IMG/VR virus record: IMGVR_UViG_2529292909_000007
Location: 1-19,664 of that record
Direction: 5' to 3' (one strand)
DNA: 19,664 nt
Origin: a virus
Lineage: Monodnaviria > Loebvirae > Hofneiviricota > Faserviricetes > Tubulavirales > Inoviridae
The translations under genes and the position numbers were made by a program. Below are positions 601 through 8,984 of this stretch, piece by piece. Each line of letters begins with the position of its first letter. Position 1 is the stretch's first letter. The notes beneath the pieces were generated by a model. It was not told the origin of the DNA. It was given only the letters and a program-made list of their open reading frames with translations, and did not search any database.

Positions 601-2655
601 TTACGCGTTATTCACTTCCACCACGATACTGTCAATCAGTACCGGGTAAGTCGCATTTTTAGTGATATCGGTCACGCGCAACTTGTCTGCCGTAAACGTG
701 CCGACCGGAGACTGCGACAGCATGAATGGTGTCCCGTCCTTACCATCAATGACCGGCGTCACCTCAATACTGTTGTTACCGGCAAAACGGAAGCCCAGCG
801 TATGCCATTCGTTATTAAATGCGCCGAATGACCCCAGCTTCGTGTTCTGCGCCGTGTTTCCTTTGTGATACATCACGTTAAGGTCTGTGGCATCGCTCTG
901 TACGTAGAACGATGCCAGCAGGTTATGACCGGCATTTCCTTCCAGAGTAACCCCTTGCGGCAGGGCAGAAACCGGCCAGTACAGCGCCAGTGCGTACTGA
1001 TTAGCCGTAAGCGCGCCATCGAGTTTAAAACGACAACTGACAAGACCACCTTTACCCAGCAGGTCCGCACCATTACCAGCATCATGCTCAAGGTACCAGG
1101 GGGCTCTTCCTGTTTCCTTGGTCAGTTTCATTGCCTTACCCCCGCTGGCTCCGGCATCATCCACGATTTGAGCCTTGCCACCTCCGGCAGCCCAACCCTG
1201 TGGTGTCAACCGTCCTTCAGACTCAGATGCCCGGTAAGCAAATAGCGTACTCATCGTCGTGGTGTCTGCGGGTGGCGTGGACGGTTTTGATGGTGTATCA
1301 GGTGACGGCTTCTCATCCGGTGGTGTCACGGTCTGCCCGCGCATCAGTTCAGCCGTGCGCCCTGCATGGAGCATAATAGCTGAGGCCAGACGGTCTGAAA
1401 TGACGCCCCTGCGTGCCCATGAGCTGAAATGGCTGTCACGCTGTGTCGAAACAAAACTGCCCTGGGTTCGGGATGCTGCACCGTAATACCCGACAGCCAC
1501 AATATCCGGGTCTTCCGCCGGAGCATTCGTTGGCGTGCTCTGTCCATTCTCATCCGTCAGGAACGGTACAAAGAAAATTTTCTGTGCTTCCTTGCCTTTG
1601 TAGCCACCGTATACTGCCTCATATTTATCGGTGCCAGCGTTTTTCCAGTAATACGTGGTATCACCGCAAATCCACGGCACCGTGGTGGCATTTCCACTCA
1701 CGCACTGCGCAGCAAGCGGAGCCAGGTCAGTTCTGAACTGCTGAACCATGGCCGTGAATAAACTATTATGCTGCTGGCTTCCTGAGGCAAGGTCTGCCTC
1801 TCCCTGCATCCAGACCACAGCCAGAAGTTTGTTTTTCGGGTTTTTCGCCAGCGCGACTTTGGTGCGGCTTACCAGGTCCTGATACAGAGGTTTACCGGCC
1901 CCCCAGCGTGAAGAATCAGCGGAAGCACCGCTGGCCTCACTGAATGAGCCGTCGGCTCCAGTGGTGAATGCTGACCCGCCACGACAACAGGGCACCAGAA
2001 GTATCCCGGCATTCTGTGGGATATAGGGAAGCAGTTTTTTGGCAATATGCAACCCCTGACCGACAGTCCCGTACTGGCCTTTTGCCAGATCAGCTTTCGG
2101 GTGGTTTATCCCGCTCATATCCTGAACATCATGCAGGCAGTGGTCTGCCGGAATGATGTCGTTGTATGTACACGACGTACCGTTGGGCGTTACCGTACTG
2201 CGGCGTGCCAGTTGCTTAATGCGTGGGTCCGGGCGGTCAAACGAATCCGGTAACGGCAGCCCCTCGCCGTAGGCCATGCCATTTGACTGACCCGCGAGAA
2301 TGACAACAAAGTAATATTCCGGCTCTGAACTGCTGCCATTCGTGCTACCGGAAGGCCCGGCGTTATCCGGTGCATTCCAGTCGGAGGGCGTGAGCGTTCC
2401 GGCCACGTCAGATGTGATTGGAATGATGCCAGTCACGCCTGAACTGGTGATTTCTGCACTGGGATTACCGGATACCGGCATTACCCATAATGGCTCTTTC
2501 GTGCTGAAGCGGATCACGCAGTCTGCGAAGGTGATCCCCCCTTTATTACCCGAAGGGCGGAAAGGGCTTTCAATAAATGCCACCGTGCCACCGGCAACCT
2601 TGACTGAAAACTCTCCGGGCATGGCGGAGAGCATTTTCCACTTGGAGTCTGACAT
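601..2655 (-). CDS. prophage NanS-p-like sialate O-acetylesterase (SGNH/SASA-domain protein), 684 aa
   Basis: Long ORF containing VVILAGQSNGMAYGEG (GQSN active-site motif of the SASA/DUF303 esterase family) with a Pro/Thr-rich linker and C-terminal beta-rich domain. Family assignment is from recalled motifs. Confidence 0.7.
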   Translation of the reverse strand: MSDSKWKMLSAMPGEFSVKVAGGTVAFIESPFRPSGNKGGITFADCVIRFSTKEPLWVMPVSGNPSAEITSSGVTGIIPITSDVAGTLTPSDWNAPDNAGPSGSTNGSSSEPEYYFVVILAGQSNGMAYGEGLPLPDSFDRPDPRIKQLARRSTVTPNGTSCTYNDIIPADHCLHDVQDMSGINHPKADLAKGQYGTVGQGLHIAKKLLPYIPQNAGILLVPCCRGGSAFTTGADGSFSEASGASADSSRWGAGKPLYQDLVSRTKVALAKNPKNKLLAVVWMQGEADLASGSQQHNSLFTAMVQQFRTDLAPLAAQCVSGNATTVPWICGDTTYYWKNAGTDKYEAVYGGYKGKEAQKIFFVPFLTDENGQSTPTNAPAEDPDIVAVGYYGAASRTQGSFVSTQRDSHFSSWARRGVISDRLASAIMLHAGRTAELMRGQTVTPPDEKPSPDTPSKPSTPPADTTTMSTLFAYRASESEGRLTPQGWAAGGGKAQIVDDAGASGGKAMKLTKETGRAPWYLEHDAGNGADLLGKGGLVSCRFKLDGALTANQYALALYWPVSALPQGVTLEGNAGHNLLASFYVQSDATDLNVMYHKGNTAQNTKLGSFGAFNNEWHTLGFRFAGNNSIEVTPVIDGKDGTPFMLSQSPVGTFTADKLRVTDITKNATYPVLIDSIVVEVNNA

Positions 2656-2740: not shown

Positions 2741-3313
2741 TCACGGTACTTTTGGTGACGGAGCTGGTGAGGCAGGAAAATAACGATAAAGGGTGGAAAG
2801 GCCAATATCAAATATCAGTGCGATTTGTTTACGGGACTCGCCATTAGCCAGCAAACGGGCGATTTGCTCCCGCTCTTTCTCTGTCAGTTTCTGAGGTCTG
2901 CCGCCATGACGCCCCTGAGCACGGGCAGCAGCAAGACCCGCGCGTGTACGTTCAATAATGAGTTCCCGCTCCATTTCCGCCAGCGCGCCCATTATATGGA
3001 AAAAGAAACGTCCCATGGGAGTGGATGTATCAATATTGTCCGTAATGCTGCGGAAGTTAACGCCGCGTTGCCGGAGTTCTTCTGTTAAAAGGACAAGGTG
3101 CTGCATACTGCGTCCAAGGCGATCCAGTTTCCAGACCAGCAGGGTATCCCCTGGCCGGAGTCGCTTTAATGCGCGTTTAAGTCCGGGACGCTCCCTTGTC
3201 TTACCGCTTATTCTGTCTTCGAAAAACAGCTCACATCCTGCACATTCCAGCGCATTTCTTTGTAGCGCCGTATTCTGGTCATTTGTTGACACCCTGATAT
3301 ACCCAATCAGCAT
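2741..3313 (-). CDS. serine DNA invertase, Gin/Pin/Hin/Cin family (190 aa)
   Basis: MLIGYIRVSTNDQNTALQRN...VWKLDRLGRSM...FFFHIMGALAEMERELIIERT is near-identical in pattern to Mu Gin / e14 Pin, with catalytic Ser in the YIRVST motif and a C-terminal HTH. Confidence 0.9.
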   Translation of the reverse strand: MLIGYIRVSTNDQNTALQRNALECAGCELFFEDRISGKTRERPGLKRALKRLRPGDTLLVWKLDRLGRSMQHLVLLTEELRQRGVNFRSITDNIDTSTPMGRFFFHIMGALAEMERELIIERTRAGLAAARAQGRHGGRPQKLTEKEREQIARLLANGESRKQIALIFDIGLSTLYRYFPASPAPSPKVP

Positions 3314-3378: not shown

Positions 3379-3404
3379 TTCCTGAAAACCTCGGTTTACG
3401 GGAA
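3379..3404. other. left inversion crossover site (gix/hix-like 26 bp site)
   Basis: TTCCTGAAAACCTCGGTTTACGGGAA resembles Mu gixL (TTCCTGTAAACCGAGGTTTTGGATAA, recalled) and lies immediately next to the invertase gene. Confidence 0.7.
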
Positions 3405-3470
3405 ACGGTGAATAAGGCGGCGAATGCTCTGCCATCGGACGGCACCGCCGTTGCCGCGAATAGACTCGCC
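3391..3470. repeat. left arm of ~80 bp inverted repeat inside the invertible segment
   Basis: 3391-3470 matches the reverse complement of 4630-4709 with few mismatches; both encode ...[17 protein letters not shown]... Confidence 0.8.
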
Positions 3471-3752
3471 ACCCCAAGAAATATTAATGGGGTTCCCTTT
3501 GACGGGACGAAGGACATAAACATCACTTCTGGTATAACACAGCAGGATGCGGATTCCCGATATATCCAGGATATCAGGCTGGGAGCAGAGAACAGGCAGG
3601 TAATGTACGGTGGGGCATATTACTCTGCGTACGGTAATGTTATGGCAGGCCTGCAGATTGACAGTAAAGTTGATGCTTCAAACGATTTTATAGCATTCAG
3701 ACCCCTGCAAAAATTAGTCGGAGGTACATGGATTACGGTATCTCAGTTATAA
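3408..3752 (+). CDS. alternative tail-fibre C-terminal exon (silent in this orientation)
   Basis: Frame is open back to the crossover site; begins with the same IR-encoded peptide ([26 protein letters not shown]) as the expressed fibre, then diverges. Confidence 0.6.
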   Translation: MNKAANALPSDGTAVAANRLATPRNINGVPFDGTKDINITSGITQQDADSRYIQDIRLGAENRQVMYGGAYYSAYGNVMAGLQIDSKVDASNDFIAFRPLQKLVGGTWITVSQL

Positions 3753-3803
3753 ATAGTCAGTAAATAATATATTTTAAAACAGATTTATTTCCAGGAGGAT
3801 TTT

Positions 3804-4325
3804 ATGGAACTAAAAAATATAACCCGTTATTATCCTGAAAATATGCCATATGGTAATAATGTTCAGTATTTCCAGAGTGAAGATGGTAAGGATTTCTACG
3901 AATCCCTGCCATTATTCACCAAAAAATATAAACTTTGCATAACACCTGACAGCGGCGTTATCTGCTCAATATCACAGGACGCCTCGGCGCTGTATCCTGC
4001 GGGGTTTTCTGTGGTTGAGGTCGATGAACTCCCTGAAGGCACGGATATTTCAGGAAACTGGAAGTTTGATAATGGCATAATCTCCCGTATTCCGGTTAAC
4101 TACGCAAGAAAACTGGAAGCAATGCGCCAGTCATATCTTAATCAGGCATATGAAAAAATTAATGACTGGAGAACGGAGCTACAACTGGGCACCATCAGCG
4201 ATGAAGACAGAGCAGCACTTACCCAATGGATGGCATACATCAGTCAGGTGAAGAAAATGGAACTACCCGCCATTAAAACAGAAGCTGAATTTAACGCCAT
4301 TAAATGGCCTGAGCAGCCACAGTAA
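3804..4325 (+). CDS. tail fibre assembly protein (Tfa/U-like chaperone), 173 aa
   Basis: AGGAGG before the ATG; lies immediately downstream of the alternative fibre exon; C-terminal region resembles the Tfa family. Confidence 0.75.
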   Translation: MELKNITRYYPENMPYGNNVQYFQSEDGKDFYESLPLFTKKYKLCITPDSGVICSISQDASALYPAGFSVVEVDELPEGTDISGNWKFDNGIISRIPVNYARKLEAMRQSYLNQAYEKINDWRTELQLGTISDEDRAALTQWMAYISQVKKMELPAIKTEAEFNAIKWPEQPQ

Positions 4326-4328
4326 TAA

Positions 4329-4348
4329 AGAAGGCCGGAAGGCCTTCT
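4329..4348. terminator. hairpin between convergent genes, candidate bidirectional terminator
   Basis: Perfect 8 bp stem AGAAGGCC / GGCCTTCT with GGAA loop between the Tfa stop (4325) and the fibre stop (4357). Confidence 0.45.
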
Positions 4349-4356
4349 GAATATCA

Positions 4357-5238
4357 TTATATACTTGCAGCCGTCACCCATGCTCCATTTAACAGATACT
4401 GCAACGGCCGGTAATACACGCCGCCGACGTTATCTGCCGTATTCTTACCGACATCCTGTACTTTAATTCCGGTAAGAACATTGCCGCCCCCCAGATTCAG
4501 ATCCCAGCTTTCCCATGTTCCGGGCATATGTGCGGTCACCGACCCCAGTCTTATGGCGGTTACTGTTCCTGATGAGATAGTGATATCCTGCGTCCCGTCA
4601 AAGGGAACACCATTAATTGTGTGGGCATTTGCCAGCCTGTTCGCGGCAACGGCGGTGCCGTCCGATGGCAGGGCATTCGCCGCCCTGTTTACCGTTTCCC
4701 GTAAACCGACGTTATCGATAAAAGCCCCTTTATCCGGAATGTCTGCGCCGTTCTGCTCCCTGCGCAGGTAACGGTTATCACCTTCGCTTTTGCTGTAAAC
4801 ATCCAGATTATTACGGGCGGTTCCCTTATTCTCCAGGTCGGCGAGATTCTGATCCTTCGCCAGGGCATTAACGTCAGCGGGACCAAGACTGTTTTTTGTG
4901 GCAAGCGTCCCCAGACCAAGATAACCACGGGCCAGACGCTGGGCCTCCGCACCGGCATCAGCAATTTCTTTCAGGTTATTTTTCCGGGAAAAGGCATTCG
5001 CAGCGATAATGGCTTTAATGGACAGCGTAAGCTGGTTTAACTGCGCCTTATCCGGCTGAATACTGGCTTCAGCCAGAATATTCAGCAGTTCGGCCTGGAG
5101 AATATTCAGCCAGTCCTGACCAATCCAGCTGATACCTTTTTGTCCGTCACCTTCGGTAAACCAGGTGGTGGTATTACTCTGCGCCGGTGCCAGCGCAGGC
5201 ATATTCGCCACGCCGGAATTATTATCAACATGAAACAT
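4357..5238 (-). CDS. tail fibre protein (293 aa); constant N-terminal part outside, variable C-terminus inside the invertible segment
   Basis: N-terminus [10 protein letters not shown]...WFTEGDGQ is a tail-fibre-type N-terminus as recalled for Mu S-like fibres; the ORF crosses the right crossover site; GGAG RBS upstream. Confidence 0.75.
4630..4709. repeat. right arm of ~80 bp inverted repeat inside the invertible segment
   Basis: Reverse complement matches 3391-3470. Confidence 0.8.
4696..4721. other. right inversion crossover site (gix/hix-like)
   Basis: TTCCCGTAAACCGACGTTATCGATAA; its inner half is the reverse complement of the left site's inner half. Confidence 0.7.
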
Positions 5239-5378
5239 TAAATAGTCTCCTCTTCATGGCTGTTTGCATAAACGTAAATAAACGTCTGCCATGCAGGCTT
5301 ATAACGGTTCAGAATACATTCCAGCGCACCGCCTTCATAAATACGCAGCGGCGTGAGAATATCATCCAGCACATTCAT
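5238..5378 (-). CDS. small ORF (46 aa) whose stop overlaps the tail-fibre start (TAATG)
   Basis: Translation [46 protein letters not shown]. No clear SD; below the track's length cutoff. Confidence 0.25.
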
Positions 5379-5433
5379 ATTCCGGTAAATTCATTTTGTT
5401 ACCGCAGGATTGCATATTCATATAACACCTCAT

Positions 5434-5661
5434 TTAGCTGACTTGTTTCGCACCAACAGAACGGCATATTCCGCTGTAAACTTCTGTCGCACCTTCGCGA
5501 TCAAGTCCGGCAGATATCACCATTCGTGTGCGGTCATTAAATTCAAAAAGTAAATCGCCACATGCTTTATTTTCGGCCAGTGAAATCACCTTCACGTTAT
5601 CGAAATTAACCAGGTAAAAGCGTCCGTAAATATCAGGAATATTAAATACCGCCATAATCAC
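5434..5661 (-). CDS. hypothetical 75 aa protein directly downstream of the B-like gene (position of Mu kil)
   Basis: Start overlaps the B stop (ATGA/GTG at 5661-5658). Assignment is by position only; no sequence recognition. Confidence 0.4.
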   Translation of the reverse strand: MIMAVFNIPDIYGRFYLVNFDNVKVISLAENKACGDLLFEFNDRTRMVISAGLDREGATEVYSGICRSVGAKQVS

Positions 5662-6589
5662 ACCTGTGAGAGTAATTCAGGGTTGGTATAAACCTCTTTA
5701 AAGGCCGCATTAATATGTTTTTCTGTCAGCGCCGCGCCTTCACCGCTGGCGGTGAGCCACGCCTGGTTAAGCGTATGTGTCAGAACACGTAATGCTCCCG
5801 GCTTTTCAGCGATAGCCTGCATGACGGCCAGCTCGGCCTCACACTGATACCCCATGCCCTGGCAATGGCCAGCACATCCGCCTTTTTGGCCTTGCGAAGT
5901 TGTTTTGTACGGGCAAGACGGCTGAACAGGCGCGATAAATCATCAAAGGCGCGGCGTCCACCTTTAAACAATCCGCGCGGGTTACCAATAAGCACCATCC
6001 CGATCCCCGTGGCGTCCTGAATTGCCCGGAGTTGCTCCAGACCGTCAATACCAAGATGATCCGCCTCATCCACAATCACCAGTCCACGCGTTCCCGTCAG
6101 GCGACGGCGGATGGCGCGGGATAATGCCCCTTTGTTCGCGCGGGTGTAATCAATCCCCAGCGCATCGGCCAGCTCCAGCAGACACTCCGTGACGCTGGAG
6201 TGCGCGGGTGACAGGGTGATCATCCAGGTGTTTGGTTGCTCCTGGCAGTAATTACGGGCAGTGGCCGTTTTACCCACACCCGGTACGCCCACAATAACGT
6301 TAATACAGCCCATCAGGCGAACCGCCTGAAACAGTGCGCGCAGCTCCTGGACTGTCTGAGTTTCCACAAACTGCGGCGGTTCCGGCAGTGCGCTTTGTTT
6401 ATTCCAGTTCTCATACCAGGAGCGCAGGGAAGCAGCCACAGCGGCGTTATCGCCTTTATATTTCCCCTTGCGGAAAGCCGATAATGTGCCGTCGGAAATT
6501 CCCGCCTCTCTGGCGATGGCATACTGCGTCAGTACGCCGCCATCAATAAGTTCATCAATGGTCTTGATTACATCGTTTATATCGGTCAT
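5658..6589 (-). pseudogene. Mu B-like AAA+ transposition ATPase, split by an apparent -1 frameshift at C4 run 5850-5853
   Basis: Track ORF 5780..6589 carries Walker A GVPGVGKT and Walker B LVIVDEADHL. The C-terminal domain continues in ORF 5658..5855 (AEKPGALRVLTHTL), matching the recalled MuB C-terminus. One extra G/C in the run would give a single ~310 aa ORF. Confidence 0.8.
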
Positions 6590-6663: not shown

Positions 6664-8751
6664 TCAGGCCAGAGGGTCATTTTCTTTTAATTTCGCTTCG
6701 AGCAACTGCAATCCCCGCTGGAAATTACGCTCGTATTCTTCATCAGGCTCATCATCAACGGCAGGTTGCTGAACGGTCACCGTATTACCCACAGGGCGGT
6801 ATATGTTTTCCAGCCAGGGCTCCTGCGGCTTGTGCTCCAGCACGTTGACAACCTCATCCTCGGCATCACGGATTTTTTCCTCTGCGCGTTTACGCATACC
6901 TTTAAGGCGTTGCTGCTGTTTGTAGTATTCCGCGCTGACCGGGAAGGCTTCGCGTTTATTGCCGTCCCATACCGCCTCGCAAATCACGCTGCCATCCGGG
7001 CGACGTACGGTAATTCGTTCGGCATCATGAATGTCATAGCTGATAAGCACCTTGCGGCCATGCTCATCACTCAGCTCGGGCGCGTAGTAAATATTATTCA
7101 GCCAGCGTATTTCACAGCGTCTTACAGGGCGTTTCACCATCGGCCGGAACATATCCCGCAGCTCAACATCGGACAGCCATTCAATTTCCGTGTCCTCTTC
7201 TGCCAGGCGTTTTTTTCTGAACTCCGCCGGGCTGTAATGCTTACCGTTCGGCTTCATGGGTAATTCATCGTGCGGCCGGTTGTTGTACCACTCAACACCG
7301 TCACGAATGGCATCAATCAGTTCAGACCAGGACGGTAAATCACGCATCGCTGACTGCTGCCGGGCGTTCAGCCGCTTACCCTGTTGCAGGGCATTAAATG
7401 CCGAGCGTAAATCGCGGTTGGTTTTGCGTAACGTCTCGCGATCTGCACCTTTTCCGAAATAGGTGCGGTATTTACGGGCTATGCGCATCGGTAATGTGCG
7501 GTTAAGCCGTTCGATAATGCCCCGTCCCTGCGGGTTACCGGCAATCCCGGTCGGGTGATTAATCCCCAGGCGCGGCAGGATCCCCACAACCTCCTTATCC
7601 AGGATGTCGGCGGTTTCCCCCGAGCCGTTATCCGAGTAATACAGAAACGGTTTGCCGTGATGGCGAATGCCGTGCTGTATGGCACCGGCTACAGCGAAAA
7701 CATTTTCAGCCAGATCAAGGCTCCAGCCCACCACAAAGCGCGTGCCACCGTCGATAACAAAGGTCACTTCCGGTGCGAATGGCCGCCCGTGAACCGGGTG
7801 CGCACATTTCAGCTTCATGCCGTGACCGTCACCAATCCAGACATAATTCACCGGCATTTTTGACCAGTCGCGGCGCGTGAATCCCTCAAGCTGGCGGTAT
7901 TCACTGCCGGTAACCCGTCCTTTTTGTTTCACCACTTCCGGCAGTTTCTTCATTGCGCGGCGAATGGTGTCATAAGACGGCATGATATCGAGCATATAAG
8001 GCTCATCAGCGTGCCGGTGCTGCCATTCGGCAACAAAATCCTCGTAAGCCTCGGTCATTGGTCGGCCGTTTGACTGGCGATACTGCGCCAGAAATTCGGG
8101 CAACCAGTTAATATCTTCGGCTTTTATTTCCTGGCGTTTACCTGGTGCCAGCAAAAGCAGGCGTTCAGCAGCGTTCTGTGCCTTATTAAAGGCCGCAATC
8201 CAGCGTTTCAGCGTGATTTCACTCAACACGCGACTGTTTCCCTTTCTGGCGTTCGCTATCTCAACCATTGCCACAATGCGCTCATCCAGTTGCGAGTGTG
8301 ACAGGCGGTCAACGATGAACCGGATAGCTTTAGCGCAGCTGAAACCGGGTTGTTGCGTGAATTTCAGCACCTCACTGACGATCGCAATGCGTGCGTCTGC
8401 CACCTGGCGCTGGTTTTCAGTCAGGGCATTGAGGCGTTCGACCATCAGTTGTGGTGATCCGCGATATGCCTCCACCGCATCAACCACGGCAGACGAGCGT
8501 CTGGCCTTTGTCACCACCGGAGCCGGTGATTCATCGGCTTTTTGCGTCATCAGTTGCAGGGCATAACGTTCGCGTAATGCCTGCTGTGTCACTTCAGGTA
8601 AACAGTCAATGCTGTATTCAAAACCTTTAGCGCCTTTCTTGCGGCGTCTGCTGGTTTCGCTGGTTGCATACTTCCTGATTGAATAGCGAACGCCTTGCTC
8701 CGTTCCCGGCATCCCCGGTAATCCAACCAGTTCTTTGACTGAAGCAAACAT
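6664..8751 (-). CDS. Mu-type DDE transposase (MuA-like), 695 aa
   Basis: Size and position immediately downstream of a Ner homologue and upstream of the B-like ATPase; long single ORF typical of MuA-family transposases. Confidence 0.85.
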   Translation of the reverse strand: MFASVKELVGLPGMPGTEQGVRYSIRKYATSETSRRRKKGAKGFEYSIDCLPEVTQQALRERYALQLMTQKADESPAPVVTKARRSSAVVDAVEAYRGSPQLMVERLNALTENQRQVADARIAIVSEVLKFTQQPGFSCAKAIRFIVDRLSHSQLDERIVAMVEIANARKGNSRVLSEITLKRWIAAFNKAQNAAERLLLLAPGKRQEIKAEDINWLPEFLAQYRQSNGRPMTEAYEDFVAEWQHRHADEPYMLDIMPSYDTIRRAMKKLPEVVKQKGRVTGSEYRQLEGFTRRDWSKMPVNYVWIGDGHGMKLKCAHPVHGRPFAPEVTFVIDGGTRFVVGWSLDLAENVFAVAGAIQHGIRHHGKPFLYYSDNGSGETADILDKEVVGILPRLGINHPTGIAGNPQGRGIIERLNRTLPMRIARKYRTYFGKGADRETLRKTNRDLRSAFNALQQGKRLNARQQSAMRDLPSWSELIDAIRDGVEWYNNRPHDELPMKPNGKHYSPAEFRKKRLAEEDTEIEWLSDVELRDMFRPMVKRPVRRCEIRWLNNIYYAPELSDEHGRKVLISYDIHDAERITVRRPDGSVICEAVWDGNKREAFPVSAEYYKQQQRLKGMRKRAEEKIRDAEDEVVNVLEHKPQEPWLENIYRPVGNTVTVQQPAVDDEPDEEYERNFQRGLQLLEAKLKENDPLA

Positions 8752-8753
8752 AA

Positions 8754-8984
8754 TTACGCGACCTTACGAATGTAGCGGCTGGGCCAAATCTCCTCGGGCG
8801 GCACCCCCAGGCATTCCGCGATAATCCCCTCATACTTGGGAACATGGCGGTATACCGCGTTGTACAGATTGTTCTGACCCACGCCAGCTTTACGGGCCAG
8901 CGCCCTCATGCTTCCTTCTCTGGCTCTGACTTCCCCCAAAATTCTTTGAGGATGCCAATCAGGCTTAACTTCATTTCTCGCCAT
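8754..8984 (-). CDS. ner: Ner-like DNA-binding regulator (76 aa)
   Basis: MARNEVKPDWHPQRILGEV...EEIWPSRY carries the DWH and IWPSRY motifs of Mu Ner / Nlp; divergent from the repressor. Confidence 0.85.
   Translation of the reverse strand: MARNEVKPDWHPQRILGEVRAREGSMRALARKAGVGQNNLYNAVYRHVPKYEGIIAECLGVPPEEIWPSRYIRKVA

Follow-up and report, generated by a model that had tools for sequence, protein, structure and literature searches.

How does a tail-fibre switch with two alternative tips work when it carries a single fibre assembly chaperone? The question is raised by the left part of a window of 19,664 nucleotides (the whole stretch analysed, IMG/VR record IMGVR_UViG_2529292909_000007, filed under Inoviridae), in which an invertible segment of a Mu-like prophage holds two fibre tips and one tail fibre assembly (tfa) gene. 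The textbook rule for the fibres of Mu, P1, e14, P2 and tailocins is one chaperone per tip, and host-range engineering usually moves the tip and its chaperone together. Our comparisons show that the single tfa is a conserved, stable design in a widespread lineage and not a recent deletion. The element is thus a switch of the Mu G / Gin kind that fails one defining feature of that kind, one chaperone per tip, consistently across this lineage. Judging from the sequences, it is a G segment in miniature that acts as host-range switch of a Mu-like prophage of the Sp18 type, and we put at about one half the probability of our preferred reading, that one Tfa serves both of its tips. The parts of the switch are as follows.

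3379-3404: gixL, 26-bp crossover site, TTCCTGAAAACC TC GGTTTACGGGAA, with its central TC at 3391-3392
4696-4721: gixR, 26-bp crossover site, reverse complement TTATCGATAACG TC GGTTTACGGGAA, with its central GA (TC on the minus strand) at 4708-4709
3384-3532, plus strand: left arm of the inverted homology (about 150 nt), encoding the common start of both tips
4568-4716, minus strand: right arm of the inverted homology, just inside gixR
5238-4357, minus strand: fibre gene, 293 aa in the present state
4710-5238, minus strand: fibre residues 1-176, the constant part, with homology to the corresponding part of Mu S
4357-4709, minus strand: joined tip T1 ("A", residues 177-293), in frame with the constant part
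3392-3752, plus strand: silent tip T0 ("B"), a homologue of the C-terminal knob of Mu S, which inversion would turn into the end of a 296-aa fibre
3804-4325, plus strand: tfa, the sole tail fibre assembly gene, 173 aa, with an AGGAGG ribosome-binding site, 51 bp after the silent tip
4329-4348, minus strand: hairpin with an 8-bp stem and a 4-nt loop, between the convergent stops of tfa and the fibre gene
2741-3313, minus strand: Gin/Pin-type serine DNA invertase, 190 aa, intact
3181-3243, minus strand: possible recombinational enhancer, a pair of sites resembling the Fis consensus, within the 5' part of the invertase gene

An earlier note on this DNA had proposed that two inverted gix-like sites of 26 bp bound a segment of about 1.3 kb, that repeats just inside them encode the same peptide, and that an invertase would swap the last 110 or so residues of the fibre for about 97 others. 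The sites and the repeats were borne out. In a pattern search, gixL and gixR appeared as imperfectly palindromic 26-bp sites in inverted orientation with an identical central dinucleotide, TC; the inner half-site of gixR is the same as that of gixL and the outer one is degenerate, and AAACCNNGGTTTAC is matched with 0 mismatches at 3386-3399, inside gixL. The 1.3-kb segment that they bound adjoins the invertase gene. Its inverted homology is made of a repeat of 86 nt just inside the sites, 90% complementary (3384-3469 / 4631-4716), and, next to it, a second stretch of 50 nt at 82% (3483-3532 / 4568-4617), with the peptide LRETVN(R/K)...INGVPFDGT coded by both arms. The tip swap also stands, a flipped natural copy encoding the fibre of 296 aa; it is the lengths that need correction. 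The crossover falls at codon 177 of the fibre gene and trades 117 residues (state A) for 120 (state B), and as the first 26-27 exchanged residues are nearly identical in both tips, the real difference is about 90 versus 93 residues. The proposed driver of the switch is confirmed as an intact recombinase with a Resolvase domain (N-terminal, catalytic; 1.6e-51) and an HTH_7 domain (C-terminal helix-turn-helix; 4.9e-15), the catalytic Ser9 within YIRVSTNDQ / MLIGYIRVSTNDQ, a DRLGRS motif and 75% identity to SfMu Gin. The two Fis-like sites in its gene have centres 48 bp apart; site 1 (gene positions 71-85) has a good consensus and is kept in SfMu gin, a conservation that could be due to coding constraint alone, and site 2 is weak. 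The pair is consistent with an enhancer, without proving one.

The DNA-inversion switch of this type of Mu-like E. coli prophage inverts in nature, as follows from flipped, near-identical prophage copies in other E. coli genomes. In E. coli NCCP 13983 (L002), the same prophage carries the inter-site stretch exactly reverse-complemented, with the flanks aligning on one strand and the interior on the other. The exchange point is a 17-nt interval, 3391-3407, which holds the central TC, and the resulting fibre gene is followed by tfa on the same strand. Near-identical copies in complete E. coli genomes have the window's orientation in 18 cases and the opposite one in 4-5; among the invertible loci, the tfa-less tip is joined to the fibre in 20 and the other tip in 7, these loci being non-independent samples. 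Strains DLI.5a, TOE17 and AST46 each hold two prophage copies, one per orientation, which is compatible with recent transposition plus independent flipping. The two copies of each of these strains (NZ_CP103972.1, NZ_CP069093.1 and NZ_AP043639.1; hits H15/H93, H16/H94 and H5/H95) lie at different chromosomal places. For the Mu prophage of enteropathogenic E. coli E2348/69, which is not necessarily of the same lineage, sequencing and PCR have demonstrated inversion (PMC4272514). Some copies carry frameshifts, in a tip (L014 6221-6490, T1; L053 1178-1446, T0) or in the invertase (L006 1535-2040; L014), and these are either decayed switches or sequencing errors.

Is the chaperone gene really alone? 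The earlier note had placed a single Tfa gene behind the silent tip and had seen no chaperone adjacent to the expressed one, in contrast to Mu and P1 with one chaperone per tip. We use "expressed" only in the sense of in frame with the constant part, because the prophage of the window lacks its morphogenesis genes and its fibre gene no longer sits in a late operon. Pfam and tblastn agree on the single gene: its product matches Caudo_TAP (PF02413, E 4.8e-19, 69.2 bits against a cut-off of 22.1) and is homologous to Mu U (match to 5yvq_B at 4.2e-16). It is co-oriented with T0 and convergent to T1. The second statement holds in part: no co-oriented chaperone gene accompanies T1, but tfa itself is adjacent, with stop codons 31 bp apart, pointing the other way. 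The comparison with Mu and P1 was checked on SfMu and the P1-like phage MH422554, used as controls, and each has two convergent tfa genes. With three Tfa queries in tblastn, no second Tfa-like reading frame was found in the window, on the expressed side or elsewhere, nor in the 26.6-kb stretch of the intact prophage of E. coli JE86-ST05 (L001) that extends from flanking host DNA across the prophage's right end as far as the head gene, nor in this lineage among the 75 loci that we typed.

In the lineage with a DUF6645 gene, about 30 related loci of the Sp18-type Mu-like kind, each complete module consists of two convergent tips flanking a single tfa. These modules reshuffle two Tfa types, whose N-terminal halves are 73% identical and whose C-terminal halves are 49% identical, and five tip types, of which T0, T2 and T4 are co-oriented with tfa and T1 and T3 convergent to it. 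T4 and T3 have each been paired with both Tfa types, and T1 is found opposite T0 or T4; the occurrence of T4 with both Tfa types indicates that the pairing of Tfa and tip is loose in this lineage. Covariation was uninformative on the tip served, with Tfa variants tracking neither tip strictly, and the first 20 or so codons of tfa travel with the upstream spacer. A relative in Citrobacter braakii ATCC 51113 (L007, 6819-9223) goes further, with three gix-like sites (6819, about 8845 and 9212), two silent tips in series and one Tfa-like gene, its C-terminal half DUF4376, convergent to the joined tip. L046, another relative, has the canonical two tfa genes. The element of the window is probably of the same lineage as Sp18, the Mu-like prophage of E. 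coli O157:H7 Sakai. About 200 genomes, O157:H7 strains among them, match at 80-90%, and their annotations give a fibre, tfa, a tail-protein fragment, a recombinase and DUF6645 in the same arrangement. The single chaperone is nowhere mentioned in the Sp18-related literature that we found, and our literature searches found no mention of a single-tfa invertible segment; the one-chaperone layout seems not to have been analysed before.

A recent loss of a second tfa by deletion was considered as a separate explanation. It is ruled out by the 31-bp gap with a clean hairpin between the stops, and by a layout common to alleles 40-60% identical. The hairpin is terminator-like for the fibre transcript and has no T-run on the tfa side; other alleles have a different hairpin at the equivalent place.

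Both tips have relatives in other phages. Residues 1-191/198 of the fibre match the Mu S structures 5yvq_A and 8ju3_A (E 1e-45 to 1e-47), and by its alignment the protein is a shortened Mu S with about 210 fewer shaft residues. T0 and T1 both align with the last 70 or so residues, the terminal knob, of Mu S and S', and share 43-52% identity with the C-terminal ends of SfMu, P1-like and P2-like fibres (52% for the P1-like tip and T1). T1 and T3 are working tips and not decaying ones, as purifying selection acts on their coding sequences (dN/dS 0.06-0.17) with the same strength as on the other tips. By which chaperone, if any, are they served?

In six other phages, a Caudo_TAP gene lies 0-17 bp downstream of every T1-like tip examined (SfMu S', P1-like MH422554, P2-like OU784549, Actinobacillus pPE4, Pectobacterium POP15 and Escherichia TH18), which means that such tips are normally coupled to a chaperone. 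T3 shares 60% identity with the S' tip of SfMu, a tip with a dedicated Tfa. These observations speak against the view that Tfa serves the co-oriented tip only, with T1 and T3 folding without a phage-encoded Tfa or borrowing that of another resident prophage, so that the switch would alternate a Tfa-capped fibre with a bare one. A further comparison comes from seven locked loci (L018, L019, L020, L022, L025, L027 and L034; in L020 at 1074-2900) that have in common one deletion. It took out the co-oriented tip together with gixL and the greater part of the invertase gene, and froze the T1/T3 state. A full-length convergent tfa is kept in all seven, with dN/dS of 0.11-0.23 at dS up to 0.43, and the 305 non-coding nucleotides that separate tfa from the divergent DUF6645 gene are 94-96% conserved, against 79-84% at the third codon positions of tfa. 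A gene that served only the deleted tip should decay, and thus the intact tfa of the locked loci speaks for a shared chaperone. On these alignments, a shared chaperone fits the comparative data better than does an expressed tip that manages without one. The same 305-bp stretch of the locked loci also holds a promoter-like candidate, TGGACA-17-CATATT, about 135 nt upstream of tfa.

The comparisons show that a Gin-like serine invertase recombines the inverted gix sites at the central TC and flips the 1.3 kb, so that the 176 constant residues of the shortened Mu S are joined to one of two receptor-binding tips of about 118 residues, T1 or T0. For the expression of tfa we propose that it shares a transcript with the fibre when T0 is joined; when T1 is joined, it would need separate transcription, against the late operon, from a promoter at most a few hundred bases upstream of tfa. 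Tentatively, one promiscuous Tfa, expressed whichever way the segment lies, may fold, and perhaps cap, a whole family of interchangeable mini-tips, which phages could then trade as chaperone-free cassettes of about 350 bp; or else the T1/T3 knobs may be the first Mu/P2-type tips that fold without a Tfa.

Several observations weigh against a Tfa that is shared in this way. T1 and T3 always occupy the chaperone-less position (about 30 loci) and are traded between lineages without any tfa, a pattern that would also fit tips needing no chaperone. With T1 joined to the fibre, tfa lies antisense to the late transcript and a terminator separates the two; a consensus scan found no promoter for tfa on its strand. 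In a position weight matrix scan, three spacer types gave borderline promoter scores (10.5, 9.9 and 9.6), at the 90th percentile of random pieces, and the two others gave unremarkable ones (8.1 and 8.5); random pieces scored 7.0 +/- 2.0. An alignment of the upstream spacers of 51, 95 and 120 bp revealed no common motif beyond the ribosome-binding site. Furthermore, the locked loci may have acquired their tfa alleles from invertible relatives through recombination, in which case the purifying selection is not necessarily a mark of the locked state.

For a Tfa restricted to its co-oriented tip, the convergent arrangement with its terminator and no clear independent promoter, and the exchange of T1 and T3 as tip-only modules that are always tfa-less, count as support. 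The fibre is in addition very short (293 aa versus 504 in Mu), and the register problem that Tfa would solve, on the model reported by North and colleagues in 2019, may be smaller. The presence or absence of Tfa could itself alter host range under such a restriction. In PMC11915804, North and Davidson (2021) are cited for Mu Tfa remaining on the fibre and binding host surfaces. Set against the tfa genes directly downstream of homologous tips in six phages, the dedicated Tfa of the SfMu S' tip and the selected tfa of locked prophages that have lost the co-oriented tip, we regard a tip-restricted Tfa as unlikely, though deserving of serious attention.

Two further features of tfa were noted. The spacer before it is unusual in measuring 51-120 bp, as compared to a 1-bp gap or a 4-bp overlap in SfMu. 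The Tfa of the window is 28-36% identical to all the Tfas behind T1-like tips elsewhere, with no special kinship to any. As a separate observation, a perfect 8-bp palindrome, CTGAAATA-TGCG-TTATTTCAG, lies about 60-85 nt upstream of tfa in L005, L006, L043 and the locked loci; it is kept in the loci with the 120-bp T4-tfa spacer and absent from the 51-bp spacer of the window.

The missing co-transcribed chaperone could also be taken to mean that the T1 orientation is an OFF state, in which the fibre misfolds and the particles are non-infectious, making this an ON/OFF switch and not an A/B one. The tail fibre of Sp18 was scored "atypical" in the Sakai study (PMC2669165), which would agree with this. 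We nevertheless consider an OFF state very improbable: T1 and T3 are as strongly selected as the other tips, the tfa-less orientation is the majority both in complete genomes and among invertible loci (see the counts above), and the lineage fixed in the tfa-less state persists in otherwise complete prophage contigs of 35-36 kb.

With a shared Tfa as the preferred reading, the locus can be set beside the known switches. Like the Mu G segment (Gin; also in D108 and SfMu), it has inverted 26-bp gix-type sites, a homologous fibre constant part, homologous tips, invertase and Tfa/U, and a crossover at the same place of the protein, GL(Q/R)ETVN. The gene order is of the Mu type in both, namely baseplate, fibre, segment, invertase, then com and mom, and the constant N-terminus outside the segment with alternative C-termini inside it in opposite orientation is the arrangement of Mu G and P1 C alike. 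The differences are in scale and content: the segment is about 3 kb in Mu and 1.3 kb here, the variable fibre part about 310 residues in Mu and about 118 here, a DUF6645/SASA esterase gene lies here between the invertase and com/mom, and Mu has U and U' where the segment of the window has one tfa. The feature of Mu G and P1 C that is missing is thus a dedicated tfa directly downstream of each alternative tip. The P1 C segment (Cin) and the e14 P segment (Pin) are likewise serine-invertase switches of a fibre C-terminus with the same tip family, and e14 has one tfa per tip, as judged from the gene names tfaP and tfaE (PMC12529663). Within Mu-like phages, the alleles of the window (T0/T1 and the other Tfa type) differ from the T2/N1C1/T3 set of a Mu-like phage inserted in an Stx2c phage (L003). 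The switch of carotovoricin Er (Nguyen et al. 2001, as cited in PMC13195805) reportedly also has a small segment with 26-bp repeats and exchanges only the fibre C-terminus; carotovoricin Er is a tailocin of P2/pyocin ancestry, unlike the Mu-like element of the window.

A stable natural switch with two or three tips and one chaperone runs against the one-chaperone-per-tip rule. Either one Tfa can act on knobs that share only about 40% identity, or there are knobs that do without any, and both cases would ease the retargeting of phages and tailocins. The locus also poses a regulatory question, namely how a chaperone gene that faces the late operon is expressed.

The copy in the window is itself a remnant: the head and tail genes are gone, and the fibre gene has no late operon around it. 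Its switch may still flip, yet it cannot change the host range of any particle. The left 5387 bases of the window are 99.8% identical to, and colinear with, the right end of the intact Mu-like prophage of E. coli JE86-ST05 (L001), and two further features flank the switch.

5239-5387, minus strand: 3' remnant of a baseplate gene (YmfQ / Mu gp48-like), last 149 bp
601-2655, minus strand: DUF6645/SASA-esterase gene, 684 aa, with SASA (sialate-O-acetylesterase-like), a Pro/Thr-rich linker and a C-terminal DUF6645

At a deletion junction, 5387/5388, the baseplate remnant is fused to the Mu early region, which comprises two small open reading frames (ORFs), a MuB-like ATPase, the MuA transposase (6664-8751), Ner (8754-8984) and the repressor (9168-9713). 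A prophage that has lost its head and tail genes yet keeps fibre, switch, invertase and DUF6645 gene at 99.8% identity might have been domesticated, so that the remnant now serves the host, for instance by keeping other phages from adsorbing, and is not a host-range switch. An analogous case exists in the e14 P segment, where inversion by PinQ yields StfE2 and blocks T2 adsorption (PMC12529663). The junction, however, was present in no complete E. coli genome of our collection, and what is left matches intact prophages at 99.8% identity; together these suggest that the deletion is recent and not a selected state. The fibre gene, moreover, is without operon context, and we see very little chance that the module is domesticated. 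Locus H2 had appeared as a possible twin of the window's deletion and was rejected as a differently rearranged prophage.

In the intact copy, com and mom lie beyond the DUF6645/SASA gene. Judging from its domains, the product of this gene could be a virion-borne or lysogenic-conversion carbohydrate esterase; our literature search found no mention of DUF6645. In the lineage, the gene always comes directly after the invertase, and it adjoins the fibre gene even in the invertase-less L052 and L054. In the early region, the MuB-like ORF (5658-6589, minus strand, 269 aa) ends early and is overlapped by a 65-aa ORF in another frame; its Phage-MuB_C match is cut at profile position 26 of 78, and it is probably frameshifted. 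Beyond the repressor end of the prophage (10319-16945, minus strand) are a fimbrial usher gene represented by its C-terminal half (10319-11467) and genes of the filamentous-phage type, among them a secretin (12519-13517) and a Zot-like gene (13801-14925).

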